Shown here: one piece after another, positions 2,639-23,766 of the stretch
Layout: the number at the start of each line of letters is the position of its first letter
How positions within the stretch are numbered: the stretch's first letter is position 1
Source: Thermodesulfobacteriota bacterium
Lineage (GTDB): Bacteria > Desulfobacterota_D > UBA1144 > Nemesobacterales > Nemesobacteraceae
Length of the DNA stretch: 64,000 bases
Assembly: GCA_965263275.1 (NCBI GenBank)
Contig: OZ253668.1
Location: 388,486 to 452,485, forward strand
Direction of reading: 5' to 3'
The notes under the pieces: generated by a model
The model's database searches: none
What the model saw: the letters and a program-made list of their open reading frames with translations, nothing else
Told to the model about the DNA's origin: nothing
Position numbers and translations under genes: made by a program

Positions 2639-3361
2639 ATGGCCGACAGATCTGGGATCGAATGGACTGACGCGACATGGAATCCGGTGACGGGTTGCAC
2701 CAAAATCACACGTGGTTGCGAGAACTGCTACGCGGCGCGCTTTGCCGAACGATGGCGTGGAGTCAAGGGCCATCCCTACGAACAAGGCTTCGACCTGCGT
2801 TTATGGCCATCGCGGCTTGATCAGCCATCACGATGGCGAAAATCTCGTATGATTTTTGTCAATTCGATGAGTGATTTGTTTCATAAACGCGTGCCGCGCC
2901 GGTTCATTGACGAAGTTTTCCAGCAGATGGAAAATGTGGATCACCACATCTATCAGATATTGACGAAGCGGAGTTCACTCATGCGGGATTATCTGAAGCG
3001 CAGGTACTCAGATGGTGCGGTTCCGGAGCATATCTGGTGCGGTGTTTCAGTGGAAGACCAAACGGCTACGGCCAGAATTCTGCATCTTCAAACTACACCG
3101 GCTACGGTTCGTTTTTTATCTGTTGAGCCGCTGTTAGGTCCACTAGGTGACATTGACTTGGAAGGGATTTCATGGGTTATTGTCGGCGGAGAAAGCGGTC
3201 CAAATGCTCGTTATTTGCATCTTGATTGGGTTTGCGACATCCGTGACCAATGTGCATCCACAGGCGTACCATTCTTCTTCAAGCAGTGGGGAGGGCGAAC
3301 GCCCAAGGCTGGTGGTCGCGAGCTTGAAGGGGTGGAACATAACGCTATGCCTAACTATTAA
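2639..3361 (+). CDS. DUF5131 / phage Gp37-Gp68 family protein (three-Cys motif)
   Basis: The N-terminus IEWTDATWNPVTGCTKITRGCENCYA is the family signature (WNPxxGC..GCxxCYA, Cx5CxxC). Length of 240 aa is typical. Confidence 0.8.
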   Translation: MADRSGIEWTDATWNPVTGCTKITRGCENCYAARFAERWRGVKGHPYEQGFDLRLWPSRLDQPSRWRKSRMIFVNSMSDLFHKRVPRRFIDEVFQQMENVDHHIYQILTKRSSLMRDYLKRRYSDGAVPEHIWCGVSVEDQTATARILHLQTTPATVRFLSVEPLLGPLGDIDLEGISWVIVGGESGPNARYLHLDWVCDIRDQCASTGVPFFFKQWGGRTPKAGGRELEGVEHNAMPNY

Positions 3362-3376
3362 ACGGAGGAATTATTC

Positions 3377-4630
3377 GTGTCTTCTTTCAAGTGGCATCCT
3401 AATGAGCCACCGCCTCAGATTGAAACACATAGCAAGGCGAAACTGGATGTGTTGCGCAGATACATTCAGGAGTATTTCGACAGGTTGAATGCCAAGCCAC
3501 AACGGGAGGAATTCAAGCTTGATCTAGTCGATGGTTTTGCCGGAGGCGGCACATTTCGTGATGGAAATACTGACCTCTCGGGTACGCCGTTGGTCATGTT
3601 AGAGGAAGCGGAAAAAGCGGAGAAGCGTTTAAACAAGAAGCGAAAAAAGCGACTACATATTAATTGTAAATTCTATTTCGTTGACAAGGAGAGAGCTCAC
3701 ACAGATCACCTTAAAAAAGTTCTCAAGGAACGCGAATATAGGGTTGATGAAGACAAAATTGTTGTCCGAAACGGTCTTTTCGAGAATGAAATCGAAGCTA
3801 TTCTTCGTTCAATTAAACAAAGACAGCCTCGTGCTGGACGTGCAATTTTTCTTCTCGACCAGACCGGTTTCTCTCAGGTGGAATTGTTGCTCGTCTCTAG
3901 GATTTTAAATGAGTTGCCAGCGGCAGAAGTTATACTTACATTTGCTGCGGAGACACTTGTCAATCATCTCGCAACAACACCTGAGATAGTCAAGGCGGTT
4001 TCACCGCTGCAACTGACTGAATCACAGATAGGCGACCTGATACAATATAAGGAAGGGGCTGGCGGAATGGCCTTAGTTCAGAGGACATTGCGCAATCATA
4101 TACGCTTAATGACCGGGGCGGAATATGACACTCCATTTTTCATTCGCCCTGCAATATCTCGCCGCGCATTGTGGTTTCTCCATCTGTCAAGACATCCTAC
4201 CGCGCGAGATGTCATGATTCGACTGCATTGGGATACTCAAAACAGGTTTGAGCATTATGGTCCCGGTGACTTCGGTATGTTGGGATGGGACGCATTAAGA
4301 GACTCCTCAAGTTTGCCTTTGTTTCAATTCGGTGATCTTGACCAGACACAGATGCGAAACCAGCTTCTGAACTCACTTCCAAGGAAGTTATTCAGCTTGG
4401 TATCTGAAGAGCCTGTTACCGTAGACGCGATGCGGCATATATTTGCAAATCAGACTGCCGCTCGATTTTCCGATCTTGATGAGATTATCCTTCAACTTGT
4501 TAGAGAAGAGGAGTTTCAAATTCTAGATCCAGAAGGCAAGGCGCGTTCGCGTTCACTAAAGCGTTTGAAGCCTACGGATCGAATCGGGCTGCCTCCAACC
4601 TTATTGTTTCCGGGGTTTTCCCGCAGGTGA
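3377..4630 (+). CDS. Three-Cys-motif partner protein TcmP-like (regular genomic partner of DUF5131)
   Basis: The 417-aa ORF starts 15 bp after DUF5131, so an operon is likely. Size and adjacency fit the TcmP family. An N-terminal LDLVDGFAGGGTF resembles a Rossmann/SAM motif I; this is inference. Confidence 0.55.
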   Translation: MSSFKWHPNEPPPQIETHSKAKLDVLRRYIQEYFDRLNAKPQREEFKLDLVDGFAGGGTFRDGNTDLSGTPLVMLEEAEKAEKRLNKKRKKRLHINCKFYFVDKERAHTDHLKKVLKEREYRVDEDKIVVRNGLFENEIEAILRSIKQRQPRAGRAIFLLDQTGFSQVELLLVSRILNELPAAEVILTFAAETLVNHLATTPEIVKAVSPLQLTESQIGDLIQYKEGAGGMALVQRTLRNHIRLMTGAEYDTPFFIRPAISRRALWFLHLSRHPTARDVMIRLHWDTQNRFEHYGPGDFGMLGWDALRDSSSLPLFQFGDLDQTQMRNQLLNSLPRKLFSLVSEEPVTVDAMRHIFANQTAARFSDLDEIILQLVREEEFQILDPEGKARSRSLKRLKPTDRIGLPPTLLFPGFSRR

Positions 4631-4752
4631 TGAATTTCCTTTTTGGTAACTGGCCCAGACCGAACTTCCAGACGGAAATCACTTCCTTGTCAGTGCCACG
4701 CTCTGCCCGCCATCTACTTGCTCTTCTCTCAAAAGTACGCTTCACTCTGGGG

Positions 4753-5649
4753 TCAGCTTCTCTTCACCCGTGCAAGCGACTCAATTAATTTACGCGAACG
4801 CCCAGCAATTAACGAACTCTGGTTATATATAATCTCATTAATTCTTCGAATTGTATGATCTCCTGTGATTTCAGCTAGACTCTCCTTTTCCCTAGGATGA
4901 GAGTCATGGTGTGTGACAGTTATATCGTGCGCGATTGGAAGATGCCATTCAGCTCCTGGATCAGAAAGTTTGTGATAGAGCCTTGCTGTGGGATTACTTC
5001 CGATAATAAAACTCTTGTTCGGTTTACGAATTATTCCGATAATGAGACCTCTGCTCTGAAGAATTTGAAATATCTTGCTTTCGGGAGTTAATCTGGCTAC
5101 CGCAGTTGCCCTAAGGTTGTGTTTTGTTCCGTCTATTTGTTTGGGATCATTCGCTTTCTTGATTTCTTCTTCCGTCGGTGGTCCATACTCTTTTTCATGC
5201 TCGGCTATAAGCTCGGGAATCCAATCAAGGTATTTATTCACAATTGGATCAAGGACATCCGGTGTACGAAAGGATTGAATCAGGAAAAATACATCCCATA
5301 TATTTTTTTCATCAGGAGTTAATTTAGGCAGTCTACCAGATCGGGCCGAGTTGATTATTTTTTTGGTTACGGGTGCAGCTTTTGACTCCAATTTAGACAG
5401 AGAGTCTTCAACTGAAACATTCTCCTCCTCGTGACCATCATATTGGGTGTAGAGTTCATCCTCTACGAAGAGTTTCTTTGGAGTTCTGCTTTTAACAACT
5501 CTCTCATGGGGCTTAATAACGGTTCCTTCAGAGGAACCTAAAATGCAGAAATGTAGTTTGTTGTCGTTATCTGTAAATTCTCGTAACAACAGTTGTGGCA
5601 CGTAATGGTGCCGTTTCGGTCGGTTCTCGGATTTGCTCATTAGATTCAC
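4753..5649 (-). CDS. DUF4238 domain protein (Rst_DUF4238-like defence candidate)
   Basis: N-terminal HHYVPQLLLREF matches the DUF4238 'HYVPQ' signature. Low-GC gene immediately downstream of the ATPase on the same strand. Confidence 0.65.
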   Translation of the reverse strand: MNLMSKSENRPKRHHYVPQLLLREFTDNDNKLHFCILGSSEGTVIKPHERVVKSRTPKKLFVEDELYTQYDGHEEENVSVEDSLSKLESKAAPVTKKIINSARSGRLPKLTPDEKNIWDVFFLIQSFRTPDVLDPIVNKYLDWIPELIAEHEKEYGPPTEEEIKKANDPKQIDGTKHNLRATAVARLTPESKIFQILQSRGLIIGIIRKPNKSFIIGSNPTARLYHKLSDPGAEWHLPIAHDITVTHHDSHPREKESLAEITGDHTIRRINEIIYNQSSLIAGRSRKLIESLARVKRS

Positions 5650-5763
5650 CTATTGGCAATGCTTCATGCCATTACAAAGGGATAATTCCCAAAATTTTAG
5701 TCGGCGACTTGCTGAGCACTATCGAGACCTCTTCACCATTAGTTAGTTATTTTCCCAGAAATA

Positions 5764-7929
5764 CTAAAGTTCCCGGACCTCTTCATAAACTTTCTTCAGA
5801 TGTTCATCAGATAAGTCCATAATAGGTTCATACATAAATGAATTGAGGTGAATATTCTCCGGCGTCATAAGAACAACCTTGTCTATAGATGAAATAGCAT
5901 CGCCGTCGTTCGGGTATTTCTCCTTAAACCTGCTCAAAAGCTTTGTTGTTTGAGATTCGTGAATTTCCGCCACGAAATTTGGTTCGTTGATTCGGGTAAT
6001 CATGTATTGTTCCGCCTTCAGTCTAGCCGCGATAGAGAGAACTATCTTGTTCTCCAAGTTTATACCCCCCTCGGCAACTAGACATGCATCGGCTTCTTGA
6101 AAAATGAGATCAAGAACTTTTCCAGTCCCGCCATTTGCGGGTTTGATTTTGGAACTGAACAGGTTTCGATAAATCTCAAAGAGATCGGCCTCTGTCAGAC
6201 TGTTCGTATCGGTTTTTATATGAAGCAGGGAAGTGAGTTTCTTGAAGTGTTCCGAATCTTCTCCAACGGTATACTCTACGAGGTTCCGCATGAATGGTAT
6301 TGACGCAATCCGCTTTCTTGGGTTGGAGGCAAAGTCCGGTTTCCAATCCTTCACGAAAACATTCTTTATCCCCGTCGCAGGTTCGATTTTAATCCCATCC
6401 TCGTTGCGTTTAGCCAAGAAGCAGGAACCGTAGTTAACAAAGCGGCTCTGGACTGTCCGGAAAAAATCAAAATTGTGCGTCAAAATCAATTGGCGGAAAT
6501 TCTTCTTTTCCGAAATATCCTTCAGGTACTGAATTATTGCGTACTTGTTTCTGTAATCAAACGAATCCGCAATATCATCAATAATCATTATAGTTTTCTG
6601 TCCAGAACTAATTCGTACTTGAATCTCGAATATGATGTTCAGGATATAGAAAGCTTTTTTTTCTCCAGTGCTAAGTACTTCAAGAAGGCTGTCTCTTTCT
6701 AAATCTTTACGCTCTTCACCATCTTTGAATGTAAAACCGAGCTTAAGAATCTTCTCCTCTCCGAGCGTGACGGGGATTTTGTTCTTCACGACCAATTCAA
6801 AAGGGACAAAAAAACGTGTGTTAAAAATCTCAATAACCTTCTCCCACTCAGTTCGTTCCCGTCCAGCCACTTCTTCTATTTCTTTTTTCTTTTTGGCTGC
6901 ACCCCGGATTTCCTCAACCAGTTTTTTGAATAGCTCCTTGTTTACACCCAAATAGCTCTTCCAGACATTGTCTTTGAACTCAGTTATATTGGCCAACGCT
7001 GGAAGAATTTCCTCATTTTCCGAAATATAGCTCTGAAATCCTCGCATACCCGCATTCTTTATTAGCAACTTTTCGAGCCCTTGGAATACTTTCCGCAATC
7101 CAGGGTCGGAGGATATCTCCTCCTTCTCTTTCTGAATCAGTTGCTCAAGCTGTTCGCTCGATTCTACTTCCATCGGATCTTGGGCATTGAGACTGACGGT
7201 ATGTTTAGCTTTGAAAAATCCGTTATCAGCAAGAGTTTTCGCAATGACTGAAGCATTGTAATAGGTGAAAACCCCTCTTTTGAAGTAAGTCGAACGATCG
7301 ATTAGTTCATTGTATCTCTTTATATAATCCTCAATGGTATCTTTAGCTCCTCCAGTGTTTAGAAACTCGAGAACTCTATTATCAAAGACCACATCATAGC
7401 GAATGTCTGCAAAAGGAAAGCTTGTTTCAGACATTACTTCCTCATATATACCAGAGATAGCACGCGTAAACTTGTCTTCTAAGGCAGTAAACGTTAAGGA
7501 GATCTCTTTTTCCAAGTTCTTCTTAGATCCAGATTGTTGCTTCATCGCATCCAGAAATTGCCTCTTCGCGTCTTCTACACTGGAGTTGAGTTCCTCATAT
7601 TTTTTGCGAAGCTGGGCATTGACTAAGAGTGTAGACGTCTTCTCGGTACTACCTAGGTCCTCATCATAAGGTCGAACGACCAAGATCGATGCGGGCTCCA
7701 AGGAAACGTCTTTCTCATCGGTTATAAGACATTTCGTATCTCTATCTGGAAATACCAGATCAGCAGATTCCTTACCTTCGCTTATATCCTGAAATGTCTT
7801 GGCGAGGGAGGATTTCATTGCTCCGTTTGGAGCGTATACAGCGACGGCCGGACAATGGTTAAAACTGAATTGCTTTTCCAGTCGACGGATACCGTAACAG
7901 TGTTCCAGATCCAACTTCAAAGTTCGCAT
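5764..7929 (-). CDS. ABC/SMC-fold ATPase (AAA_15/AAA_21-like) with a long helical insert and an extra C-terminal domain of ~230 aa
   Basis: Walker A (VAVYAPNGAMKSSLAKTF) is near the N-terminus. The ABC signature LSTGEKKAF, Walker B IMIIDDIADSFD and H-loop LILTHNFDF lie ~400 aa later. The spacer is charged and coil-like. Confidence 0.65.
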   Translation of the reverse strand: MRTLKLDLEHCYGIRRLEKQFSFNHCPAVAVYAPNGAMKSSLAKTFQDISEGKESADLVFPDRDTKCLITDEKDVSLEPASILVVRPYDEDLGSTEKTSTLLVNAQLRKKYEELNSSVEDAKRQFLDAMKQQSGSKKNLEKEISLTFTALEDKFTRAISGIYEEVMSETSFPFADIRYDVVFDNRVLEFLNTGGAKDTIEDYIKRYNELIDRSTYFKRGVFTYYNASVIAKTLADNGFFKAKHTVSLNAQDPMEVESSEQLEQLIQKEKEEISSDPGLRKVFQGLEKLLIKNAGMRGFQSYISENEEILPALANITEFKDNVWKSYLGVNKELFKKLVEEIRGAAKKKKEIEEVAGRERTEWEKVIEIFNTRFFVPFELVVKNKIPVTLGEEKILKLGFTFKDGEERKDLERDSLLEVLSTGEKKAFYILNIIFEIQVRISSGQKTIMIIDDIADSFDYRNKYAIIQYLKDISEKKNFRQLILTHNFDFFRTVQSRFVNYGSCFLAKRNEDGIKIEPATGIKNVFVKDWKPDFASNPRKRIASIPFMRNLVEYTVGEDSEHFKKLTSLLHIKTDTNSLTEADLFEIYRNLFSSKIKPANGGTGKVLDLIFQEADACLVAEGGINLENKIVLSIAARLKAEQYMITRINEPNFVAEIHESQTTKLLSRFKEKYPNDGDAISSIDKVVLMTPENIHLNSFMYEPIMDLSDEHLKKVYEEVREL

Positions 7930-8145: not shown

Positions 8146-8938
8146 ATGAGAGATTATACAGCGAAGGGCCCTAAAAAAAAGGTAATTCAGATAAACGAGA
8201 AGGAACTGCAGCAACACCTCAGCCCCCTTGTCACGGATACAGTACAGGAAGTTCTGAATCAGGTTCTCGACGCGGAAGCGGACGAGATGGTCGGGGCGGC
8301 TCGATACGAACGAAGCGCCGATCGCCAGGATTATCGTTACGGGAGCTACACAAGGAAGCTCCAAACCAAGGCAGGAGAAGTTGAGCTGAATATACCCAAG
8401 CTTCGGGAGCAGACGTTTCAGATGGCCATAATAGAGCGTTACAGGCGACGGGAGTCATCGATAAAAGAAGTTTTGGTGGAGATGTATCTTGCGGGAGTGT
8501 CGACGCGTCGGGTGGCGGATATCACCGAGGCGCTGTGGGACACGCGGGTGAGTTCGGCTACCGTATCGAAGCTTAACCAAAGCGTGTACGAGCACATAGA
8601 GAAGTGGAGAAACAGGTCGATAGAAGGAGAGTTTCCGTATGTATATCTTGACGGGGTGAGTCTCAAGGCAGGGGTGTGTAGATGAGACGCTCACGTACTA
8701 CGGGTTTCCGTCGTCGCACTGGCGGAGGATCCGGACGAACAATTCTATGGAGAGGATAATCAGGGAGATCAGGCGAAGATCCAGGGTGGTGGGAGCTTTC
8801 CCTGACGGGCAAAGCGCGTTGATGTTGTGTGCGGCGAGGTTAAGGCATGTATCGGGGACGAAGTGGGGGAGCAGGAGATATCTGGATATGGAGTTGTTAA
8901 GGGAAATGGACAGAAAGGAGGGAGTTAAGGTAGGGTGA
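8146..8938 (+). pseudogene. IS256-family (mutator) transposase remnant with an internal deletion
   Basis: 8146-8685 encodes the N-terminal ~179 aa of an IS256-type transposase (YERSADRQDYRYGSYTRKLQTKAGEVELNIPKLRE...). 8747-8938 encodes only the C-terminal tail (ERIIREIRRRSRVVGAFPDGQSALML). The DDE core is missing. Confidence 0.75.
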
Positions 8939-8985
8939 TTGACAAAGCAGTATCTGGAATTTCTCAAGATCTGAGATCTCAGATA

Positions 8986-11900
8986 CTACTTGTTGGTAAC
9001 CCTGAATTGATCCAGTTTCGGTAGTGATTTCACTATTTTCATGGTTTCGAGACTCACCGTGATTATACGTCGAAACAGATCCAGAGGATAAGCTGCTGAG
9101 TTTACTGTTTCTTTTGCGTATAGGTTTGCGTTGTTTACAATACCGCTGTCTTTGTCAGTTCTCACACCTTGTCTTTCCATCACCCACTCAAGCGCCGGTT
9201 TTCCGTTGACCATATACTCGTAGGTTTCCAGCGGAATACCCGTCATGGTGATTTTATGATTGTAGGCCACGGTAGTTCGATCCTTATTTTTGCCGCTGCC
9301 GCCAAATTTCATTTTTTCTACCCTGAAGTTTTCGGGGTTAGGTTGCATAGAGTATGGATCACCTTCTTTGAAGTTAACGGGGTAGGGTTCTATTCTTTCG
9401 TAATCTACGTGTATATCCGCTAGTTCACGACCTGCATTGGAAAATGCCCAGAAATCCTTGGATTTTTTCACGCAAGGGATTCGCGGCAGTTGCTTGCTTA
9501 GATTATTGGCGTAACTCTTGCGGTAATCTTCTGAGTGAAACAGGCCATAGATGTAATAAAACACGTCTTCTTTGGAGATTCTTTCTTCTGGATAAGCTTT
9601 TTGAAAGTGCTCTAGACCTGTGTCACTTATCCCGTCTTTTTCAACATAATCATCTTCGGTGCGCTGGGTTTTATATAGTTCTCCATTAAGGTTTTCGGTT
9701 TTTTCATAAAGCTTGAGAGGAAAGCATTGACTGTCTCCTACCATATGTAAGTCGGGCAAATGATCTGTCATCAAAACGGAGAAACCACTTTTTTGACCGA
9801 CACTTGTCATTACAATCACTCGGTTTCTCACTTCAGGCTTCGGAAAAATACTGGGCATTTGAAAAACCCTTTTATTCATATCTCGGCTGAAGTAGGTCCA
9901 TTGCTTGAAAAACGGACGGTACATAGATGGATAAACACACTCAGCAAAATAGCAATGTTTTTTCCTTTTGATTAGATTCCATTTAAGTCCGTCTGTCCAA
10001 CTAATCTGACTTTTGTCAGTATCGATAAGATCATCAATGTTAGTTCTTGTTAGTTCTGAGGAAAATAAACGGTCAATTTCACTATTGTAAAACGAGATCA
10101 TGGATTCCATATTCCTCGTCAAAGTTTCCTTAGAACTGTTGTAACACCATGCGTCACGACTTGTTCCCAACCCAGCTGAATAATTTTCAAAAATCGTTGC
10201 TGAAGATTTGTCTTTCTTGTTTCCAATAGCAATGAATTCACCAAAACTCTTATCCCTCTGTTCAATCCAGTCGTTATGTTCGTCGGGTGTAATCGCTTTC
10301 CAGTTATTTGCTTTCTTGATACCTGAAATACTTTTGAATTCTTTTATATGTGCGAGTTTTTCTTCTCTTGAGAGGTAATTGCCAATATCGTGGTAATAGA
10401 TTCTTCCGAGTTTCTTTTTTGCGGGATTTTTAACTGCAATTGTGATCGCTATAGCTTCCCTGCTACCTTCTCCAAACACATTTCCACTTTCCTTTCGTCT
10501 CTGTTCACCCGAAGTTCTAGCATCTCCCCTCAAATTAAAAACATGGACACTACTAAATTCATCTGCAAGACATTTACGAAGACCATCCATAGACCTAGCT
10601 GTGATAAAGGTTGAGCTGCTCACATAAGCCAGAACCCCACAACTACCTAAACGATCTGATCCCCATCGAAAAGCTCTGACGAAAGAATTATAAAGTGAGT
10701 TTTTTGCTGTAGCGTCCGTATTTGCTACGTAGGTTGATCTAATACTTTTATCAAGACTTTTATACGAGACTTTTTTAAGATTGTCCCCCTCATCTCTTTG
10801 AGATCCTCTGTATGGTGGGTTTGCCATTATGACACGTATATCTTCAAGCTTTTTCTGTTTAATTCGACGATCACTGTTATTGACCAGTATTTCGCTGATC
10901 ATATCATCTTTTTCGTAAAGCTGGAACGTATCTGTAAGGCATATTCCTTCAAACGGTTCATATTTTCCCCCAGCAAGAGCATGATAAGCGGCTTCGATGT
11001 TGATTGCGGCTATATAATAGGCAAGAAGCACTATCTCGTTCGCATGGAGTTCGTTTTTGTATTTGTGCTCAAGTTCTTGCGGCTTTATTAGTCCGCTTTG
11101 CAGAAGACGAGTTATAAATGTCCCAGTACCGACAAAAGGGTCCAGTATATGAACTCCTTTACTGCCAAGGGTCTGTCCAAACTCTGATTGGAGTACATCG
11201 TTAACGGAATTAACAATGAAATCGACAATTTCAACCGGCGTGTAGACGATACCGAGTTTCTGCGTCATACCCGGAAACGCGTTTTTGAAAAACTTCTCGT
11301 AAAGCTGAATTATGATCTGTTGCTTTGCCCCATCGTTGTCAATGCCGGAAGCTCTCATTCTGACGCTCGCGTAAAATTTGTCGAGGCTCTCAGTTTCGTT
11401 ATCAAGGTTGTGCGCTTGAAGAGCATCCAAAACCCCTTGCATTGCTATTGAGACCGGGTTCTGTTGAGAAAAACTGTAACCTTCAAACAGCGCGTCGAAC
11501 ACGGGTTTTGTGATCAGATGCTGAGACAGCATCTCAATCGCGTCTGATTCGCTGATGCTTTCATTCAGGTCATCACGAACTTCTTCAAGAAATTTATCAA
11601 AGGTTTTCCTTTCTTCCGTATCCGGTTTTTTCAGAATAGCCCCAATCCGCGTAATATGGGTTTGAGCGATCTTTGCTACATCGCCCGCCCAGTCTTCCCA
11701 GTATTCCCGGGTTCCGCATTTCTGAACGATCTTTGCCAGTACGGCCTTGTTGAAATCGTCAAGCTCAAAAGACAGTTGTTCGGGTGGTGTAACAGGGACA
11801 GCGTGATTTTCCCGCTGCTCATCCCCGGATACACTGCCTGAACCGATATCGTTTCTCTTGGGGGTTTGTATGGATCTTTGCGGGAGATTTCCTACGACGG

Positions 11901-12282
11901 CGATTATTTCCATACGGTCGCTTACGTCAACTCCCAGATCAATCTTGTTGATCATTGAGTCAAACCGGTCGTCATGGGCTCGAAGAGCGTTAAGTATCTG
12001 CCAGACCGTTTTGTATTTCTCGTTGTTGTTAAGGGCTTGTGATGGAGGTATACCCGCAGGTATGCCGATAGGGAGTATGACGTACCCCATATTCTTGCCG
12101 GGAGCCCGGCGCATTACTCGGCCCACGGACTGGACTACGTCGATTTGAGATTTGCGTGGATGCATGAAAAGGATAGCGTCCAAAGCGGGCACATCCACGC
12201 CTTCGGAAAGACATCTGGCATTGCTCAGAATACGGCATGTATTTTGGTCCACCCCCCCCCCGATTTTTCGGCGCTCAGCCAA
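8986..12282 (-). CDS. Type ISP restriction-modification enzyme, C-terminal fragment (helicase C-lobe, gamma-class N6-adenine methyltransferase, target recognition domain)
   Basis: Helicase motif VI (QSVGRVMRR), methyltransferase motif I (DPFVGTGTF) followed by motif IV (IMANPPYRG), and a long C-terminal TRD-like region. Contiguous with the upstream fragment after a +1/-2 shift at 12252-12261. Confidence 0.75.
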   Translation of the reverse strand: MAERRKIGGGVDQNTCRILSNARCLSEGVDVPALDAILFMHPRKSQIDVVQSVGRVMRRAPGKNMGYVILPIGIPAGIPPSQALNNNEKYKTVWQILNALRAHDDRFDSMINKIDLGVDVSDRMEIIAVVGNLPQRSIQTPKRNDIGSGSVSGDEQRENHAVPVTPPEQLSFELDDFNKAVLAKIVQKCGTREYWEDWAGDVAKIAQTHITRIGAILKKPDTEERKTFDKFLEEVRDDLNESISESDAIEMLSQHLITKPVFDALFEGYSFSQQNPVSIAMQGVLDALQAHNLDNETESLDKFYASVRMRASGIDNDGAKQQIIIQLYEKFFKNAFPGMTQKLGIVYTPVEIVDFIVNSVNDVLQSEFGQTLGSKGVHILDPFVGTGTFITRLLQSGLIKPQELEHKYKNELHANEIVLLAYYIAAINIEAAYHALAGGKYEPFEGICLTDTFQLYEKDDMISEILVNNSDRRIKQKKLEDIRVIMANPPYRGSQRDEGDNLKKVSYKSLDKSIRSTYVANTDATAKNSLYNSFVRAFRWGSDRLGSCGVLAYVSSSTFITARSMDGLRKCLADEFSSVHVFNLRGDARTSGEQRRKESGNVFGEGSREAIAITIAVKNPAKKKLGRIYYHDIGNYLSREEKLAHIKEFKSISGIKKANNWKAITPDEHNDWIEQRDKSFGEFIAIGNKKDKSSATIFENYSAGLGTSRDAWCYNSSKETLTRNMESMISFYNSEIDRLFSSELTRTNIDDLIDTDKSQISWTDGLKWNLIKRKKHCYFAECVYPSMYRPFFKQWTYFSRDMNKRVFQMPSIFPKPEVRNRVIVMTSVGQKSGFSVLMTDHLPDLHMVGDSQCFPLKLYEKTENLNGELYKTQRTEDDYVEKDGISDTGLEHFQKAYPEERISKEDVFYYIYGLFHSEDYRKSYANNLSKQLPRIPCVKKSKDFWAFSNAGRELADIHVDYERIEPYPVNFKEGDPYSMQPNPENFRVEKMKFGGSGKNKDRTTVAYNHKITMTGIPLETYEYMVNGKPALEWVMERQGVRTDKDSGIVNNANLYAKETVNSAAYPLDLFRRIITVSLETMKIVKSLPKLDQFRVTNK

Positions 12283-13874
12283 TCAAGAAGCCTTCCGCGC
12301 TCCTTCGCGTTAAAGGTTCCGTCCACGTGCTCTACCTCGCATCTGAGCGTCGCGCCATTTCCCTGTTTCTGTTCTTCCAGATATTCTGAAACCACCTCGG
12401 CAAATTCTTTTTTGATTAGTTCTGAGCTTTTTATGCTTTTACAGAACGCAACGGCTTGGCTCATAGGTTCTGTGTCGGCGAGCAGATCTTCTTTGAGGTC
12501 GAGCTTGGCCAGAGCCCGATAGCACCCGATGATTTTCGTTACGTCATCCAGAACGAGCTGGGAATCGGTGTCGGTCAGGCGTTTCTGTACGCTTTCGCTT
12601 ACCACCCCTTCGTCCATGGCCAGCACGATAACCTTATAATCGGTGAGGAGGTTATTCTCCACCGCGTATGAAAAGCTGACTTCGTGGAACGTTTCTCCGT
12701 AGAGTTCGGGGTCGTCCATGGAGCATAGGACCGCATCCGCTTCTTTGGCCTTTGTTTTTACCGAGTCGTGGAAAATACGGGGCGTAGCGGTCATGTAGAG
12801 GCGCTTTTTTCCTTTTATGAAATCCTGATAGTGAACCTTGACGAAATTGGATTCATCTTTATTGGCCAAAGTAGCACCGGTGGTGCGATGCGCTTCGTCA
12901 CAGACAATCAGATCAAACTCGGGGAGTCCGTAGTCCGCCTGCGCTTTGAAAATAACCTGTATTGAATGATAGGTAGAGAAAACAACGTTCATCCTGTCCT
13001 CGCTGCAAGCACGGGAAAATTCCTCTCCAAGTTTTTCTGCGTTGGTTGTGGCAGGATACGCAAGATCGTGAATGTTTATATCCGACAGGTCGTCTCTGGC
13101 TTTGCGTTTTCCGACATGAACATCGGAGCAGACGGCAAAAGACCTCAACTCCAGTTCCGCGTCATGGGTCCACTTGCGGATTGTCTGGGACATGAGGGAA
13201 AGCGAGGGGACAAGATATAAAACGCACCCGCCTTTTCCGACTATCTGCTCGGCAATCCTGAGGCTTGTCAGGGTTTTCCCCGTGCCGCACGCCATAAGCA
13301 GCTTGCCGCGGTCAGTTTCCCCGAATTTTTTTTCCACGGCCTTCAAGGCTTCCCGCTGATGCTTGTAAAGATGCTTTCCCTCCAGCAGCTTAATCTTGTT
13401 GTCTCTCGCGTATGTTTCCCAGTCTAACGGACTCAGCTCAAGGTCTCTCAGAGACAAACGTGTAACAGGAACAGTCTGGCCTTTGAGTGCATCCTCTGCA
13501 TGGTTGCTCCACTCAACTGCGGTCGAGTCGACAATAAGACGCATCTTAAAAGACTTCTTCCCCGAAGCAGTAAAAAAAGAGTCAATATCTTTTTTCTGTA
13601 TCTTGTAATTCTCTTGGTAGAACTTGCACTGAATGGCGCAGTGGCCTTCCTCACGGGCAAGCTTCGCGACAAGATCAATCCCAGTGTCGGTTTCATTCAG
13701 ATCTTGTGATCGTGCCCATCCTGCGTATGTCCATACCTGACTGAACAGGTCTGTGTACAAGGGATCGTTCTCAAGAAAATTCTTTACCAGGAGTTCAAAA
13801 TATTCTCCCTTCTCACGCTCTGTTCTGGAGTTTTTGCGATATCTGTCAAGAAGTTTCTGCAGTGCAGAGATCAT
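12225..13874 (-). CDS. Type ISP restriction-modification enzyme, N-terminal fragment (Mrr-like nuclease plus SF2 helicase N-lobe)
   Basis: The Mrr catalytic-like N-terminus (GEYFELLVKNFLEN, GIDLVA, CKFY) is followed by a helicase Walker A (CGTGKT) and DEAH box (VCDEAH). The frame terminates just after the G10 tract. Confidence 0.75.
   Translation of the reverse strand: MISALQKLLDRYRKNSRTEREKGEYFELLVKNFLENDPLYTDLFSQVWTYAGWARSQDLNETDTGIDLVAKLAREEGHCAIQCKFYQENYKIQKKDIDSFFTASGKKSFKMRLIVDSTAVEWSNHAEDALKGQTVPVTRLSLRDLELSPLDWETYARDNKIKLLEGKHLYKHQREALKAVEKKFGETDRGKLLMACGTGKTLTSLRIAEQIVGKGGCVLYLVPSLSLMSQTIRKWTHDAELELRSFAVCSDVHVGKRKARDDLSDINIHDLAYPATTNAEKLGEEFSRACSEDRMNVVFSTYHSIQVIFKAQADYGLPEFDLIVCDEAHRTTGATLANKDESNFVKVHYQDFIKGKKRLYMTATPRIFHDSVKTKAKEADAVLCSMDDPELYGETFHEVSFSYAVENNLLTDYKVIVLAMDEGVVSESVQKRLTDTDSQLVLDDVTKIIGCYRALAKLDLKEDLLADTEPMSQAVAFCKSIKSSELIKKEFAEVVSEYLEEQKQGNGATLRCEVEHVDGTFNAKERGRLLDWLSAEKSGGGWTKIHAVF
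12252..12261. repeat. C10 (coding strand G10) homopolymer tract at the frameshift point of the Type ISP RM gene; candidate phase-variation switch
   Basis: Ten consecutive C on the plus strand. The two RM ORFs overlap exactly here (12225-12282). A tract of 8 or 11 would fuse the frames. Confidence 0.8.
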
Positions 13875-14090
13875 AGCCTAACCTGTAAAGTTCAACAGTT
13901 TTGAAAGTATCCTCCAGTTTCTTGTTTCGCAAGAAACTGCCCGGAAGGATGTTCGTTTTTCTGCTACTTCTCTGAATAATTTTACCAGACCACGTATTGA
14001 TTGTCTTATTCATCAGAAGAGAACCCAAAAACAGGACAGCGTCTTAAGTGTATTCCTGCAGTAGAGTAAAACCAGATACTCGAGGTTCAT

Positions 14091-14780
14091 TATGAGACGT
14101 AAAAGGCGTAATCATTCACCGGGGTTCAAGGCTAAGATAGCCCCGGCGGCAATCAGAGAAGACAAAACGGTTGCTGGGCTTGCCCGGCAGTATGATGTGC
14201 AGCCCAACCAGATTGCCGAGTGGAAGAAACAGTTGTTGGAGGGTGCCGAGAGTGTCTACTAGAGCGCCCGGGATAAAAAGGGTTCAGAACAGGCTCATAA
14301 GAGCGGGCGCGAAGAAAAAAGCTTGTGGATCACAATCACGATCTGAGCGTGGTAAGACAGTGCAAGCTGTTGGAGGTAAACCGCTCAAGTGTCTATTATT
14401 GTCCCAAGGTGTTATCGCGGGAGAATGGGAAACTGATGAGGCTTATCGATGAGATATATCTTGAGTACCCATTCAAGGGTCCCCGAAGGTTGCGGGACGT
14501 GCTTTTGGCAAGGCATGGCATCTGCGTGAATCGTAAGCGGGTGGCCAGGTTATACGGCTGCTGGGGCTTGCGGCATTACATCCCGGGCCCAAGACAACCC
14601 ACAGAGGGAAGGGACATAAGATATATCCTTATCTGCTTGGAGGAATGGACATAGAGCGTGTAAACCAGGTGTGGGCAACTGATGTGACCTTATATTCCTA
14701 TGTCCAGGGGGTTTGTGTACTTAGTGGCTGTCATGGACTGGCACTCAAGGAAGGTGCTGAGCTGGAGGGTGTCGAACACT
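14091..14780 (+). pseudogene. IS3-family transposase remnant (OrfA HTH fragment plus frameshifted OrfB N-terminus)
   Basis: 14091-14270 encodes MRRKRRNHSPGFKAKIAPAAIREDKTVAGLARQYDVQPNQIAEWKK (IS3 OrfA). 14325-14654 encodes the OrfB N-terminus. The integrase core (IERVNQVWATDVT...) then continues in another frame and stops. Confidence 0.7.
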
Positions 14781-15144: not shown

Positions 15145-16338
15145 GTGTTTTTGCGGTTGCTTTATCATACCGATTTAGTATCTTATTGTCTCATGATAGA
15201 CCATAACCATTTCGCAAATGAGCTTCTTCGTATCATTCAGGGGGCTTTACGTCTCGATATTGATAAAGTTAGGAATTATACTGATTTCTTGGCCGACAAT
15301 CTTGAGAAGGAGGGGGAAGAAACCTTGGCCAAGCGTTTGCGAAAACTGCTTGAGGAATCTGACCGCCAAATTCGTCCAACCGATGCTGAATTTGCAAATT
15401 TTCCTCCGGTAGACGGCGAAAGCCGATTTCACTTGGTTGAACTTGTTGATTGCCCAAAAGAACCTCCGCTTATACTGGCAGATGAACAGTGGGAAATTGT
15501 GCATGAATTTGCCAGCGTAGCCAAGAGCTATGCGCAAATTGACAATCGGGGTTACGATGCTTCTCTCAGCCTTGTTGTGCATGGGTCTCCCGGAACGGGT
15601 AAAAACCGACTTGTCCGATACTTGGCGCGAGAACTCGGCCTCGATCTGTACATCGCGCGCCTTGACGGTTTGATTTCTTCTTACCTTGGGAGCACAGCGA
15701 AGAATATCCGCGCTATTTTTGAATTCGCAGCTAAGCGTCCATGTGTGCTTTTTCTGGATGAGTTTGATGCAATCGCGAAGTTGAGAGGGGACTCTCAGGA
15801 ACTTGGTGAGTTGAAGCGAGTCGTAAACAGCTTTATCCAGAACCTCGATACTATCGGACGACAATCAATTGTTGTGGCAGCTACCAATCACGAGGAACTT
15901 CTGGATGCGGCAATCTGGAGGCGTTTTAGCTACAGGATTGAACTAACTCTTCCAGACGAGCAGATGCGCCACCGTATGTGGGTAAATTTCAGCCGACCTA
16001 TTGAATTCACGAAACGTGAACTGGAACTGCTTGTTGATTTGTCAGATGGATTCTCCGGTTCTGACATCCACGATGTGTGTGTTCGGTTAAACAGGTACGG
16101 GTTAAGTTCCAATAAACCTCCAAGCTTCAATAGAGCCTTTTTAACTATACAGAACATGTCAATAGGGGAAGTGACGAAGAACCGGATCGCGTCGCAGACA
16201 CGTGGAGTCAAGCCCGAAGAAGCGGCGTATATACTGAGAACCAGAAATCCACGATTGTACACCCTCTCGGCATTAGCGCATATCCTGGGTGTTTCAAAGG
16301 CAAAAGTGCATCGCTGGACATTAAAAAGGAGAAGTTAG
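15145..16338 (+). CDS. Classical-clade AAA+ ATPase (IetA-like); GTG start at 15145, or ATG at 15193
   Basis: Walker A GSPGTGKNRL, Walker B VLFLDEFD, and SRH/arginine finger ATNHEELLDAAIWRRF. The stop lies 2 nt before the S8 gene start. Confidence 0.75.
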   Translation: MFLRLLYHTDLVSYCLMIDHNHFANELLRIIQGALRLDIDKVRNYTDFLADNLEKEGEETLAKRLRKLLEESDRQIRPTDAEFANFPPVDGESRFHLVELVDCPKEPPLILADEQWEIVHEFASVAKSYAQIDNRGYDASLSLVVHGSPGTGKNRLVRYLARELGLDLYIARLDGLISSYLGSTAKNIRAIFEFAAKRPCVLFLDEFDAIAKLRGDSQELGELKRVVNSFIQNLDTIGRQSIVVAATNHEELLDAAIWRRFSYRIELTLPDEQMRHRMWVNFSRPIEFTKRELELLVDLSDGFSGSDIHDVCVRLNRYGLSSNKPPSFNRAFLTIQNMSIGEVTKNRIASQTRGVKPEEAAYILRTRNPRLYTLSALAHILGVSKAKVHRWTLKRRS

Positions 16339-16340
16339 AC

Positions 16341-18656
16341 ATGAATGAGAAACTGCTGCCTATAAAACTCATTATGCCCAAGCAGGGAAGTGAACGACGC
16401 ATACCGGGTGGTCGCGGCCCTAAAAAGCCATTTCGTCCGATTGATTCCACCTACAGGAACCGATTGTCCAATCAGATTAGGGCAATCCGTAAAAGTTTGC
16501 CAAAACAAATTAAAAATGTCGGTGCTGCTCCTGTCCGGGTTTCTCTGATTCCCCAAGCTATAGCTAAGACACACCGTCCCGAAAAACTGTTTTCAGAGAG
16601 CACCTGTCCGATCATTGGCGCGGGTGGTCTTGGAGAATTGTTTATTAAGGCAACGCCTGCCGGACTTGATGAGTTGGACAACATTGTAGAGGAAGGCGAT
16701 TCTGATCAACTTGTTAAGGAGCTATCTTCTGTGCAGAGCATTGAACCCGTTACTCCGAATTCTCGTCTTGGAAACACATCCACGAGGGAGTTGCTACAAA
16801 ACAGTCCACGCGGAGAAAACGGGTTTATAGTGCGAGTTCGTCTGTTTGATTTTGGCCGAGATGGGGACCAGGAAAAGTTAATGGCTGATTTTAAGCAGAC
16901 ATGTAGAAAACGCCGTATTGCAATTACCCAAGACGGTTATTCTTTAAATAGCTTCATCTACGCGGCTGAATGCAGAAATACAAACGATGTTAAGAGTATT
17001 GCTGATGTAGTGGGAGTTCGTTCAATTCACTATATGCCGTTGATTCAAACCGTACGTCCTAATATCTCCAATACTGAGAAGTTACCTCTTCTAATCGACC
17101 GTACCGAATACTCTGAAGATGTCCCGGTGGTAGTGGTAGTTGACAGTGGGATTTCAGATGAATTGCCTGTATTGGAAAGCTGGGTGCTTGGTCGCGAATC
17201 ATCTGTAGCGCCACCGTATCAAAATACTGACCACGGAACATTTGTTGCCAGTTTGATTTGTTGGGGTCATATACTGAATCCGACTTTAAAGGGACTAAAT
17301 TCTGACCCATGTGGGGTTTTTGACCTGCAAATCATTCCGAACAGCGACCCTGAAAAAGGAGACGTGGAGTCTTTACTCGAATCTGAGTTTTTATGGTCTC
17401 TGGAGAAATCGCTCAAACAGTGGGCGAACAAATACAAAGTATGGAATTTGTCACTTAACACGGATGCAGTTTGTTTGATTGACGAATTCTCGCCACTTGC
17501 GGAAGAACTTGATAATCTGCAGGAAAAGTATCAGGTATCGTTCGTTATCAGCGCGGGAAACTATATATCTCGACCACTTCTGGATTACCCTAGAACTCAG
17601 GAACAGGAAGAAAAGGGCCGTATAACTTCGCCAGCTGATAGCGTGCTTGGCATAACTGTTGGTGCCATCTCCCATGTTGATCACAAGAAATCGGGGGTGA
17701 TTAAAAACCATCCCTCTGCGTTTTCCCGTAACGGTAGTGGGCCAAACTATGTGATTAAACCCGATCTTGTTCATTACGGAGGGGCGTGTTCCACTGACCT
17801 GTCGCACATAGCCGGGATTCATTCAATTAATGGCAGGAAATCTGTCGAAGTTTTCGGAACCAGTTTTTCGGCTCCGCTCGTATCGCGAACATTGGCACAG
17901 ATATATCATTATGTAACTCCTTCTCCTTCTCCGGTGTTGGCAAGAGCTCTGCTTACACATCACTCGCGCGATCCGCGAACGGATGACCGAGTTCCTGACG
18001 GGGAGGAAAAATGCTTCGGATTCGGCCGGCCCGCGCCGGTTCCGTACTGTCTAGAGTGCATGCCATATTCGTCAACGCTTGTATTTGAAGATGTGCTCCG
18101 CCCAGGCTACTTTCTTGAATGGAACAATTTTCCCTATCCGCCATCTCTGAAGCGCGACGGTCGTTATTATGGCGAAATATGGATGACTGTAGCTTTTGTG
18201 CCAGCGAGAGGGGCCCGCTGGGGGACCGAATATTGCGAAACTCATATTGATGCAAGTCTTGGAGTTTATTACGAACAAGTTTCACGCGAAACTGGAGAAG
18301 TCAAAACAAAATTCCGTGGACTGGTACCACCTGAGCACAAAAACCCAGGCCTTCTTTATGAGTCGTCTCAAGTTGCTCAGTTACGCAAGTGGGCGCCTGT
18401 TCGAACCTACCATGGCAAAATGGGTGATAAAGGCGAAAGAGGGTTGCAATGGAGACTAAAGCTAAGGTTGTTGACGCGTCACGGTATAGATAACGAGGAA
18501 ACTTTCAAACCCCAGCCGTTTTCTTTGATCATAACTGTTGCGGACCCACAGAAAAAGGCCCCTGTCTATGATGAAATGTCTCGAATGGTACGGAATCGTT
18601 TTCAATCTGAGAATCTTACAATCAGAGTTCCTGCGCGTATTAGAGCGCGAGGGTAA
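16341..18656 (+). CDS. Subtilisin-like S8 serine peptidase with long N- and C-terminal extensions (IetS-like)
   Basis: Catalytic triad motifs VVVVDSGI (Asp), DHGTFVASLI (His), oxyanion ISAGN and GTSFSAPLVS (Ser). AGGAG RBS 8 nt upstream; tightly coupled to the AAA gene. Confidence 0.8.
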   Translation: MNEKLLPIKLIMPKQGSERRIPGGRGPKKPFRPIDSTYRNRLSNQIRAIRKSLPKQIKNVGAAPVRVSLIPQAIAKTHRPEKLFSESTCPIIGAGGLGELFIKATPAGLDELDNIVEEGDSDQLVKELSSVQSIEPVTPNSRLGNTSTRELLQNSPRGENGFIVRVRLFDFGRDGDQEKLMADFKQTCRKRRIAITQDGYSLNSFIYAAECRNTNDVKSIADVVGVRSIHYMPLIQTVRPNISNTEKLPLLIDRTEYSEDVPVVVVVDSGISDELPVLESWVLGRESSVAPPYQNTDHGTFVASLICWGHILNPTLKGLNSDPCGVFDLQIIPNSDPEKGDVESLLESEFLWSLEKSLKQWANKYKVWNLSLNTDAVCLIDEFSPLAEELDNLQEKYQVSFVISAGNYISRPLLDYPRTQEQEEKGRITSPADSVLGITVGAISHVDHKKSGVIKNHPSAFSRNGSGPNYVIKPDLVHYGGACSTDLSHIAGIHSINGRKSVEVFGTSFSAPLVSRTLAQIYHYVTPSPSPVLARALLTHHSRDPRTDDRVPDGEEKCFGFGRPAPVPYCLECMPYSSTLVFEDVLRPGYFLEWNNFPYPPSLKRDGRYYGEIWMTVAFVPARGARWGTEYCETHIDASLGVYYEQVSRETGEVKTKFRGLVPPEHKNPGLLYESSQVAQLRKWAPVRTYHGKMGDKGERGLQWRLKLRLLTRHGIDNEETFKPQPFSLIITVADPQKKAPVYDEMSRMVRNRFQSENLTIRVPARIRARG

Positions 18657-18888
18657 GGATGAGATTACTGCGTAGCAAGATGGACTGTCTAAGAGAGCTA
18701 GGAAAAGTTAAGAAGGATATTGGCTTTGAACCTATCAAATAATCTTATGGCGATATTCTTGGACGGACCCCAGGTTGGCTCAGCGGGGGGTTTTGTAACG
18801 TTATTGATTCTTTAGCAGACGAAAAAAGTTCTAGCGAAGTTTATTTGATTGAATTTATGAATTTGGAAATTCCGCGGGAAGTAAGCAT

Positions 18889-19500
18889 ATGGAAATCAGC
18901 CTTAATTTTACTAACTATAAACCAGGATTTTTAATTTGTACGATTGGAATACTCTGGCTTCTTTGTTATTGGGCATTGTCCTTTCTTTGGCAGCATGGGG
19001 TTTTTCAAGGAATTGCTCCAACTCTGCTTGTCGCATCTTTCTTGGGATTTTATGACAAGCTGTTATGGAAATTCCCTGTGTTTAGTCTTCTTGTAAAAGT
19101 CCCTGATTTAAACGGAGAGTATGAAGGTACAGTTGAATATCACTGGGACGATAAAAACCAAAACAAAACCTGTAATCTCCAAATTCGACAGACGGCTTCT
19201 TTCATTAAAGTAAAGTGTTCTTTTCAAAAAGAAGGGGAGAACGAGACTTCATCTGAAAGCAAGAAAGCTTTTTTTGATACTGATGAGGTAGGCGGCTGCT
19301 CCCTCTATTTTTACTATCAGAATAGAGGTTCTTGCAAGGATGGCGATACGTTGGACCAGCATGATGGAATGACAATTCTTCAGGTGATCGAGGAGGGTAA
19401 AGATATAAAACTAGAAGGTTCTTATTTTACGAATCGCAACCCACAGACAAAGGGGCGAATTAAAGTTTCAAAAATCATTTTACCGGAGGTAAACAAATGA
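18889..19500 (+). CDS. CBASS effector candidate: two N-terminal TM helices plus a ~110-aa C-terminal domain (Cap15-like)
   Basis: Two hydrophobic helices (LICTIGILWLLCYWALSFLW; IAPTLLVASFLGFYDKLLW) followed by a soluble domain. The stop overlaps the cyclase start (ATGA). Confidence 0.5.
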   Translation: MEISLNFTNYKPGFLICTIGILWLLCYWALSFLWQHGVFQGIAPTLLVASFLGFYDKLLWKFPVFSLLVKVPDLNGEYEGTVEYHWDDKNQNKTCNLQIRQTASFIKVKCSFQKEGENETSSESKKAFFDTDEVGGCSLYFYYQNRGSCKDGDTLDQHDGMTILQVIEEGKDIKLEGSYFTNRNPQTKGRIKVSKIILPEVNK

Positions 19501-20450: not shown

Positions 20451-21097
20451 CGAATGAAGATATTGAAGAAGTAAAGGAGGTATTCCCACAATTAAATTGC
20501 GAAGTGCAGAATGGCCGCATCTGGGGAACTTTGGACTTTTGCTGTTGGTATGACAACAGTAGCGAAGAATTAGAGCATAATTCACAGCATCGGGAAGCTA
20601 TATATGATTCTTACGAAATAGAAATTAAATTTGGCAGAAAAGACGAATTTGATTTTCCGAGAGTTTATGAACCATCTGAGAAGATATTAAAGTTTTCAAC
20701 TGATTCAGAACTAAAGCTGGAAGACTTCCACGTCAACGAAAAAGATTGTAACAGTTGCTGCTTAGGTATCTTTCCTGATTACCGATGGCAAGGCGCGACA
20801 GATTTTATATTAACAAAAGTCGTTCCATTTTTTTACTGGCAATCCCATAGAAGAATAAAAGGAGAAGAACCTTGGGAAGGATATGCCCATGGGTACAAAG
20901 GTATTGAGAATGCTTTAGCTTCAGTATCTCGTAGAAATAAAGGTCGTAACCGTAATATTTTATGTCTTTGTAATAGTGGTAAGAAATACAAAAAATGTTG
21001 CTATCAGAAAGACTCAATATTGCGATCGAGCTTGTTGAAAGCAAAGATGGATAGGAGAAAACTTAACACTAATCGCTCCGGCAAAGATTCTCAGTGA
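20435..21097 (+). CDS. Cys-rich protein with a C-terminal SEC-C zinc motif, co-operonic with the CD-NTase; function unknown
   Basis: CLCNSGKKYKKCC matches the SecA C-terminal SEC-C motif (CxCxSGxKYKxCC). Additional Cys clusters are FCCWYD and CNSCC. The start overlaps the cyclase end by 16 nt. Confidence 0.5.
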   Translation: MDIILTNEDIEEVKEVFPQLNCEVQNGRIWGTLDFCCWYDNSSEELEHNSQHREAIYDSYEIEIKFGRKDEFDFPRVYEPSEKILKFSTDSELKLEDFHVNEKDCNSCCLGIFPDYRWQGATDFILTKVVPFFYWQSHRRIKGEEPWEGYAHGYKGIENALASVSRRNKGRNRNILCLCNSGKKYKKCCYQKDSILRSSLLKAKMDRRKLNTNRSGKDSQ

Positions 21098-23665: not shown

Positions 23666-23766
23666 AAAAGAATCGGGGTTGTGCAGATACTTAAAATCCT
23701 TTTTGATGCCCCGTTCGGCAAGGATATGGTCTTCAAGCGAAGCAAGCTAATGTCGAGGTACGGGAT

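Follow-up and report, generated by a model that had tools for sequence, protein, structure and literature searches.

Homopolymer-driven switching of restriction-modification (RM) systems is already established for Type I, Type III, Type IIG and phage growth limitation/bacteriophage exclusion (Pgl/BREX) systems, mostly in host-adapted pathogens. Here, we analyzed a Type ISP RM gene that is divided into two open reading frames (ORFs) at a run of ten G. The gene was found in a stretch of 64,000 nucleotides from a Thermodesulfobacteriota bacterium (assembly GCA_965263275.1, contig OZ253668.1, positions 388,486 to 452,485 of the forward strand), and this whole stretch is called the window below.

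Several described systems are close to this locus. Cj0031/Cj0032 of Campylobacter jejuni NCTC11168 is a phase-variable Type IIG RM enzyme with an intragenic G9 tract (Anjum et al. 2016, PMC4889913). Insertions and deletions in that tract give two annotated ORFs and abolish both activities at once, the interrupted 4G-A-4G tract of another strain locks the allele, and the switching, the methylation motif and the phage restriction were shown experimentally (PMC4889913). In the Pgl system of Streptomyces coelicolor, which is related to BREX, length variation of a G tract turns pglX ON and OFF at 1e-2 to 1e-4 (PMC4365076). In Type III mod and Type I hsd phasevarions, an RM methyltransferase is switched ON and OFF through repeats (Srikhanta et al. 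2010, as cited in PMC12707154). Moreover, a Type ISP gene that is frameshifted into several ORFs was described in Helicobacter pylori (HP0667-HP0669; Krebes et al. 2014, PMC3936762), and its C-terminal fragment HP0669, which contains the methyltransferase (MTase) and the target recognition domain (TRD), is by itself an active methyltransferase when overexpressed (PMC3936762). A repeat-controlled Type ISP enzyme was not reported in the full-text literature that we searched, the coverage of which is incomplete, and this is absence of evidence only.

A Type ISP Gene Split at a Poly-G Tract

The gene and its parts, all on the minus strand, are as follows.

8986..13874, minus: whole Type ISP RM gene, two ORFs as sequenced; 1629 amino acids (aa) with G11, 1628 aa with G8
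13874..12225, minus: ORF A, 549 aa, ATG start; Mrr-type nuclease, RecA1 lobe and first part of the RecA2 lobe
12282..8986, minus: ORF B, a mechanical ORF of 1098 aa that overlaps ORF A across the tract
12252..12261, minus (coding): G10 homopolymer, the frameshift site and proposed slippage switch; orthologous tracts have 7-13 G
13395..13769, minus: Mrr_cat_2 nuclease domain, aa 36-160 (Pfam PF13156, E=1.8e-43)
12777..13373, minus: N-lobe of the helicase-like ATPase, ResIII/DEAD (PF04851, E=1.8e-24; PF00270), with GTGKT and DEAH (CDEAHRTTG)
12106..12252, minus: Helicase_C motifs V-VI (SNARCLSEGVDVP ... QSVGRVMR), directly past the tract (PF00271 and homologue alignment)
11332..11703, minus: Type ISP coupler domain, ISP_coupler (Pfam PF22240, E=9.3e-53)
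10534..11319, minus: N6-adenine methyltransferase domain (PF02384, N6_Mtase; PF07669, Eco57I), motif I DPFVGTGTF and motif IV NPPY (MANPPYRG)
9082..10194, minus: Type ISP C-terminal specificity (target recognition) domain, Type_ISP_C (PF18135, E=1.5e-108)

Positions 12252-12261 of the plus strand read CCCCCCCCCC (C10), which is G10 on the coding minus strand. Across the tract, translation in the upstream frame gives RGRLLDWLSAEKSGGG WTKIHAVF* and translation in the downstream one gives IGGGVDQNTCRILSNARCLSEGVDVP; the end of ORF A is LLDWLSAEKSGGG-WTKIHAVF*, with the stop 8 out-of-frame codons past the tract. The real coding part of ORF B is the part downstream of the tract, which contains the rest of RecA2, the coupler, the MTase and the TRD. 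When the frame was repaired in silico, the addition of one G (G11) gave a single ORF of 1629 aa and the removal of two (G8) gave one of 1628 aa, and no stop or frameshift besides the tract was found across 1619 codons. An earlier reading, which was made from the letters of this DNA and is called the sequence-only reading here, had placed the split exactly at this G10, had counted 8 codons from the tract to the upstream stop and had named G11 and G8 as the restoring lengths; all of these statements, coordinates included, held, and only its length of ~1640 aa for the whole protein was slightly too high.

As sequenced (G10), the gene does not encode the single polypeptide that is typical of Type ISP enzymes, whose ORF is continuous in the relatives P0001-P0003. 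The domains of the type are present: an Mrr-family PD-(D/E)xK nuclease, a superfamily 2 ATPase, a coupler, and an N6-adenine MTase (NPPY) followed by a TRD. Thus, the Mrr nuclease, DEAH helicase, NPPY methyltransferase and TRD that had been named from the letters were all recovered by Pfam and by motifs. The nuclease motif DTGIDLVAK...AIQCKFY aligns with DTGVDLVAE...AIQAKFY of LlaBIII (D...QxK). The repaired protein matched LlaBIII (4xqk; E=0, residues 16-1621 against 27-1574) and LlaGI (5ffj; E=0), and its C-terminal part matched the adenine MTase chain 7lo5 (E=4e-147). On the fused REase_MTase profile of PADLOC (1646 positions), ORF A covers positions 2-544 and ORF B positions 547-1640. Alignment with 114 homologues gave 498 columns of at least 98% conservation, in which the window has two private changes only, I888V and L1446F, both of them conservative; each of the other 16 deviations also occurs in at least one in-frame member of the clade, and 14 of the 16 occur in most or all six.

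Judged by these comparisons, the window contains an out-of-frame Type ISP gene, and the length of the tract is its sole lesion. LlaGI and LlaBIII reportedly translocate from an asymmetric site, cleave on head-to-head collision and methylate one strand (Chand et al. 2015). We infer the same ATP-driven translocation, collision-dependent cleavage and one-strand methylation for the window enzyme. Contingency loci typically have a homopolymer of at least about 7 in the ORF or the promoter, and the G10 lies within the ORF. A change in its repeat number toggles the frame of a gene that is intact otherwise and keeps its conserved residues, as at such loci. In the 64 kb, there are 11 G/C runs of length 6, 2 of length 7, 0 of length 8-9 and 1 of length 10, and the G10 tract is the only G/C run longer than 7.

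The tract encodes the Gly run of LDWLSAEK-S-GGG-VDQNTCRILSN, which lies in the second helicase lobe between motifs IV and V, after the helix that ends in LDWL and before the strand that leads to motif V. More than 100 homologues at 60-75% identity lack the Gly run and are 4-5 residues shorter in this loop (e.g., LSWLKEDTPENTCRILSN). The Gly-run loop is length-variable, and the insertion of 4-5 residues is clade-specific. In the AlphaFold model of a fragment of a close relative (P0257; mean predicted local distance difference test score, pLDDT, 74.9), the equivalent residues are found in a coil (396-406) between a helix (384-395) and a strand (407-412), and the pLDDT is below 50 at residues 399-401. 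Such an insertion-tolerant loop may let a Gly run of variable length exist without harm to the fold. GGG accounts for only 20-28% of the Gly codons in these alleles, and three GGG codons in a row, flanked by further Gs, are therefore unexpected from codon usage.

The region upstream of the gene (13875..14012, minus strand), which is within the conserved cassette described below, contains a weak sigma-70-like match at 14007-13979 that is not above shuffle expectation. The promoter and terminator scan gave nothing above shuffle expectation and no terminator, and the Rfam scan of the window gave no match.

Tract Length and Frame among Relatives

The closest database proteins have 83-90% aa identity and all derive from metagenome assemblies. 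Samples with relatives are ERZ25067264, ERZ25069191, ERZ25071132, ERZ23495182 and ERZ23495189. DNA was recovered for eleven relative loci, and the tract was read at the orthologous position; the lengths are those of assembled consensus sequences, compared between contigs of different samples. In the clade with at least 83% aa identity, the tract is found at the same codon, and the DNA-verified lengths in the relatives are 7, 7, 10, 10, 10, 11, 11 and 13. Because the tract is kept at the same codon position in relatives, it is considered non-random. The alleles are listed below.

Window: TC-G10-TGGACC, out of frame
L020: TC-G10-TGGCCGACC, out of frame
L015: TC-G13-TGGACC, out of frame
L001 (83% aa identity): TC-G11-TTGGGC, in frame
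L019: AAA-G10-TAGCGCTC, out of frame, in the other direction
L016 and L017: AT-G7-TGTTGCTC, out of frame
L018: AT-G10-TGTTGCTC, out of frame, in the same frame as G7
L023: ATT-G11-CAGACC, out of frame
L002: TC-GGAGGGGGAGG-CAGACC, interrupted by A ("locked"), in frame
L013: G5, in frame
L014: no tract; the gene is also broken by insertion sequence (IS) elements

Further alleles were read from protein sequences only. KIGGGADQ, present in P0123, P0127 and P0130, is in frame; KSGGRADQ and RSEGEADQ represent interrupted alleles, also in frame; KSGGGWAKIHAVF, KMGGGVLLKIHAVF and KRGGVVLKIHAVF are out-of-frame tails, and TKKGGGCGQIPVVF is an out-of-frame tail in the clade at 85% identity. In L002, P0125 and P0128, the tract is replaced by interrupted, stable in-frame versions. 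Wrong-frame tails of both kinds were seen (...WTKIHAVF* and ...CCSKYMPYSEQ...), and therefore the frameshifts were independent events.

A near-isogenic ON/OFF pair was also found. P0127 (KIGGGADQ, in frame, G10, on a 539-kb contig) and P0383/L023 (KIGGGGRPKY, G11) have 0 differences in 534 aa before the tract and 2 in 1085 aa after it. As at contingency loci, the repeat number differs between close relatives, and both ON and OFF states are represented, some of them on contigs of low coverage. Relatives that share one fixed frameshifted pseudogene, which the sequence-only reading had named as an outcome that speaks against a switch, were not what we found: the relatives differ in length and in frame.

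L020 (13x) and L023 (2x) come from the same sample, ERZ25069191, and have two alleles, TC-G10-TGGCCGACC and ATT-G11-CAGACC, in different neighbourhoods; therefore, several strains or copies coexist there. When genome contigs were scanned with the repaired protein, the best full-length relatives had 45-57% identity, and a partial match of 78% was located at a contig end (L007). The DNA pattern GAAAAATCGG N{3,25} AAAATACATGCCG had two matches in metagenome contigs of the Joint Genome Institute (JGI), and both were rejected as unrelated chance matches. A megablast search of positions 8700-14200 against plasmids gave no match.

Selection on Out-of-Frame Alleles

Apart from the tract, the frames of the OFF alleles of the window, L016/L017, L019 and L020 are complete (536 + 1083-1084 codons), and no second lesion was found in about 1620 codons in these four OFF lineages. 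The ratio of nonsynonymous to synonymous divergence (dN/dS, Nei-Gojobori) between pairs of OFF alleles was 0.13-0.18 at dS values of 0.10-0.48, in both halves of the gene. Between L016 (G7) and L018 (G10), whose flank type and wrong frame are identical, the ratio was 0.18 in the N-terminal part and 0.07 in the C-terminal part. L015 was left out of the full-length calculation, because its divergent TRD region has many insertions that the window lacks. Because dN/dS is far from 1 and secondary stops or indels are absent, the OFF lineages have not been non-functional ever since their divergence. The low dN/dS and the intact frames thus indicate that each frameshift is young relative to the divergence of the alleles. 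Young frameshifts would fit frequent back-and-forth slipping, and continual replacement by recombination appears less parsimonious. Between the window and L001, the tract is uninterrupted in both genes at a dS of about 0.8-1.0.

The two halves of the gene (13874-12262 versus 12251-8986) have unequal dS, with 0.07 versus 0.35 between L016 and L018 and 0.13 versus 0.36 between the window and L020. This suggests recombination, or the exchange of TRD/MTase modules, among alleles that would then be mosaics.

A Probable Slippage Switch and Its Alternatives

Based on the distribution and conservation of these alleles, we consider it probable, at about 0.68, that the intragenic poly-G tract is hypermutable and acts as a slippage-driven ON/OFF switch of the Type ISP gene. 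In such a switch, slipped-strand mispairing during replication would change the number of Gs. In the flank type of the window, G11 (or G8 or G14) would give the full enzyme, 1629 aa for G11, and other lengths would end translation once the nuclease and about 1.5 helicase lobes had been made. An OFF length would remove translocation, cleavage and methylation together, as was argued for Cj0031, and the window would represent an OFF length (G10) that is one insertion away from ON. If the changes are frequent and reversible within a lineage, this would be true phase variation, and the switch might serve as a bet-hedge, with phage defence on one side and restriction costs or DNA uptake on the other. 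A phasevarion role of the tract is possible and speculative. Slipped-strand phase variation had been proposed in the sequence-only reading as well. The lengths of 7, 10, 11 and 13, the occurrence of in-frame, locked and both kinds of wrong-frame alleles, and the purifying selection on OFF alleles agree with that proposal, whereas switching within a lineage is the part of it that we infer.

Several observations weigh against a switch. At least one G10 was present in 13 of 100 dinucleotide shuffles of the window (mean 0.15), which is a weak chance test, and the statistics of the tract by itself are therefore not decisive. In flank type B (AT-Gn-TGTTGCTC), 8 entries are out of frame and 0 are in frame. 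Several relatives are located on contigs of 2x-14x, according to the contig names, and L023, the OFF member of the near-isogenic pair, is on a 2x contig. From their names, these low-coverage contigs appear to be long-read metagenome assemblies, in which homopolymer length is a typical residual error, and the L016 and L017 contigs may both have been assembled from one data set. Moreover, L015, which is the closest relative of the N-terminal half of the window protein (7/534 aa differences), has further frame disruptions in the MTase/TRD part, and some lineages may be decaying.

At positions 8974-12268 of L015, the G13 tract is accompanied by many extra single-base insertions relative to the window, and the MTase/TRD part is in four ORFs. 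These disruptions would represent either a decaying copy or errors of a 10x contig.

One alternative, which we regard as unlikely, is a mutational hotspot without a switch. According to this assumption, the tract arose by accident with the loop insertion and is the commonest death route of a costly, horizontally mobile gene, and the window gene is a young pseudogene with no useful rate of reversion. In its favour, about 17 entries are out of frame (16 from the database and the window) and 4 are in frame with an uninterrupted Gly run among the members listed; this tally is non-random, its entries are not independent, and 15 of the 34 members of the P0001 cluster are listed. However, 17 of 21 is not significantly above the two-thirds that are expected of a freely drifting tract (p about 0.1, an estimate). 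The additional disruptions of L015, the broken gene of L014, the exchange of the tract for stable interrupted versions in some lineages and the fast turnover of RM genes in defence islands would also be consistent with a hotspot. Against it, dN/dS between OFF pairs is 0.07-0.18 and no second lesion is present, a state that requires frequent reversion or constant replacement of the gene, and the uninterrupted tract has persisted over the distance between the window and L001.

An assembly artefact, in which the true tract is G11 or another in-frame length, one G was dropped and the gene is intact and ON, is improbable. A homopolymer of 10 bases is a classic site of consensus indels, L001 with the same 5' flank has an in-frame G11, and an exact database look-up of the 549-aa product of ORF A returned no record. 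An identical Lpd protein is encoded on contigs ctg..._29.35x_l and ctg..._3x_l, whose names point to long-read metagenome assemblies. On the other hand, the RM gene was the only one seen to be split when the large ORFs of the window were inspected, and runs of eight A/T within large ORFs (6655-6662, 13326-13333, 45630-45637 and 62472-62479) leave these ORFs intact. Out-of-frame alleles recur on many independent contigs, including short-read-style ones (SPAdes NODE_..., scaffold_...) with the easily sequenced G7. Even if the window contained a miscall, the locus would keep a polymorphic tract.

It is distinctly improbable that the out-of-frame lengths are not null, with RNA-polymerase slippage on G10-G13 maintaining a little enzyme, or a re-initiated MTase-TRD fragment similar to HP0669 maintaining a little methylation, and with the tract acting as a dimmer. 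If true, this would account for purifying selection in a sample of alleles that is about four fifths out of frame, and for the survival of cells when restriction switches back on. In the window gene, no convincing internal start linked to a Shine-Dalgarno sequence was found for a separate MTase-TRD half. Recoding, in which the out-of-frame gene is expressed by RNA-polymerase slippage or by a -1 ribosomal shift on G GGG GGG that sets its level, is the least probable and has very little chance of being right: frame B is -1 relative to frame A, a -1 shift on the G run restores the frame of the window and most sampled alleles are out of frame yet conserved, but the relatives are in frame or off in both directions with no conserved recoding configuration, no stable RNA structure is found downstream of the tract (minimum free energy z = -0.09 versus shuffles), and the documented cases of efficient transcriptional slippage in bacteria are mainly on A/T runs, which also counts against it.

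The main interest of a slippage switch at this locus is that the comparative series across metagenomes makes it directly testable on existing reads. If true, the natural series of ON and OFF alleles could be used to connect a methylation motif with a Type ISP TRD. Annotation treats such genes as two ORFs or as pseudogenes, and active defence systems may be under-counted.

The Cassette and Its Defence Island

The other features of the window that are relevant to the gene are listed below.

8146..8685, plus: IS256-family transposase fragment (Transposase_mut, PF00872, E=1.5e-47, profile 8-171 of 379), outside the cassette
14092..14654, plus: IS3-family remnant, a truncated orfA reading from 14092 and an orfB N-terminus with HTH_21 (PF13276) at 14325-14654, outside the cassette
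2639-4630: PDC-M41/M30-like pair (DUF5131 protein and partner)
4753-5649: DUF4238 protein
5764-7929: PDC-S46, 721 aa, full-length profile match
15145-18656: IetA/IetS (AAA ATPase and subtilase)
18889-19500: Cap15-type two-transmembrane (2TM) effector of a cyclic oligonucleotide-based antiphage signalling system (CBASS)
19497-20450: CD-NTase of the CBASS, followed by a SEC-C-motif protein
25509-27284: apparently intact IS4-type (DDE_Tnp_1) transposase ORF, 591 aa, between the defence island and the housekeeping genes
37448-42953: housekeeping genes aceE, aceF and lpd

The block that is common to the window and its relatives extends from about 8939 to about 13959-14014 (blastn) and ends inside of both IS remnants. 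The IS256 and IS3 remnants, which had been noticed from the letters, do flank the gene, as confirmed by Pfam and by reading of the sequence, and the IS3 remnant is homologous to the IS3 copy in L015. The further suggestion that the gene was mobilised by IS elements is not supported, given where the shared cassette stops and given that several relatives have no adjacent IS; in L019, L020 and L023, the gene is found in other neighbourhoods and no IS was called beside it. The behaviour of the gene is that of a cassette that moves from one defence island to another.

The defence island of the window is dense (2639-7929 and 15145-24924), and a SIR2_2-like protein that adjoins an integrase fragment and a PLD-like protein were also found in it. 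A C-terminal fragment of Hsp70 is located 8 kb downstream of the RM gene, at 3-881 of the window. In L013 (5328-6208), this fragment is directly downstream of the RM gene, and in L015 (5687-6585) it is fused to an IS3 HTH_21 fragment upstream of the RM gene. Its shifting position indicates repeated rearrangement and insertion in the island.

A second G10 tract is present in L016 (5522-5531) and L017 (5340-5349), about 210 bp past the stop codon of the RM gene and before a convergent gene of 350 aa, and a G11 tract is present in L014 (3345-3355) between transposase genes. Long G runs may be recurrent in these islands.

Among the housekeeping genes, AceE has 94% identity to metagenome proteins and about 70-76% to metagenome-assembled genomes of Ca. 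Dadabacteria/Thermodesulfobacteriota. A second candidate frameshift at 37448-40201 / 39999-41513 was rejected, since the two ORFs are aceE and aceF, which overlap because of an upstream TTG included in the mechanical ORF.

Comparison with Known Systems

Considering domain order, the closest system is the prototype of Type ISP, LlaBIII/LlaGI of Lactococcus lactis, which has the same order, a gamma-type N6-adenine MTase and a full-length collinear match to the repaired protein. The loop of LlaBIII is 4 residues shorter than that of the window, and no G tract is found at the aligned site (LDWLANPNK----PADEARIVSN). The frameshifts of H. pylori HP0667-HP0669 were described as "not due to sequence repeats" (PMC3936762), in contrast to the single lesion of the window gene, which is at a homopolymer.

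For the mod and hsd phasevarions, control of a regulon was demonstrated, and their repeats are usually located in mod or in hsdS/hsdM, whereas the repeat of the window is located in the helicase domain. The likeness to pglX consists of a G tract in the methyltransferase gene of a phage-defence system, and PglX-like MTase-TRD modules are related to those of Type ISP/IIL. Pgl differs in that it comprises several genes and that PglX is toxic when PglZ is absent, while the activities of the window system are all in one polypeptide.

Campylobacter jejuni, the host of Cj0031, is a pathogen that is not known to have mismatch repair, and the host of the window gene is an uncultured bacterium. Cj0031 is a Type IIG enzyme without a helicase/translocase or an Mrr domain. 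Nevertheless, Cj0031 and the window enzyme both combine restriction and modification in a single polypeptide, both have an intragenic poly-G tract, and the locked allele of Campylobacter has a counterpart in the GGAGGGGGAGG of L002. In the window gene, nuclease, motor and methylase are in one chain, and one slip in a loop of the helicase domain would remove them all. If the switch is real, the control of defence by contingency loci would reach a further RM type as well as environmental or symbiotic bacteria.

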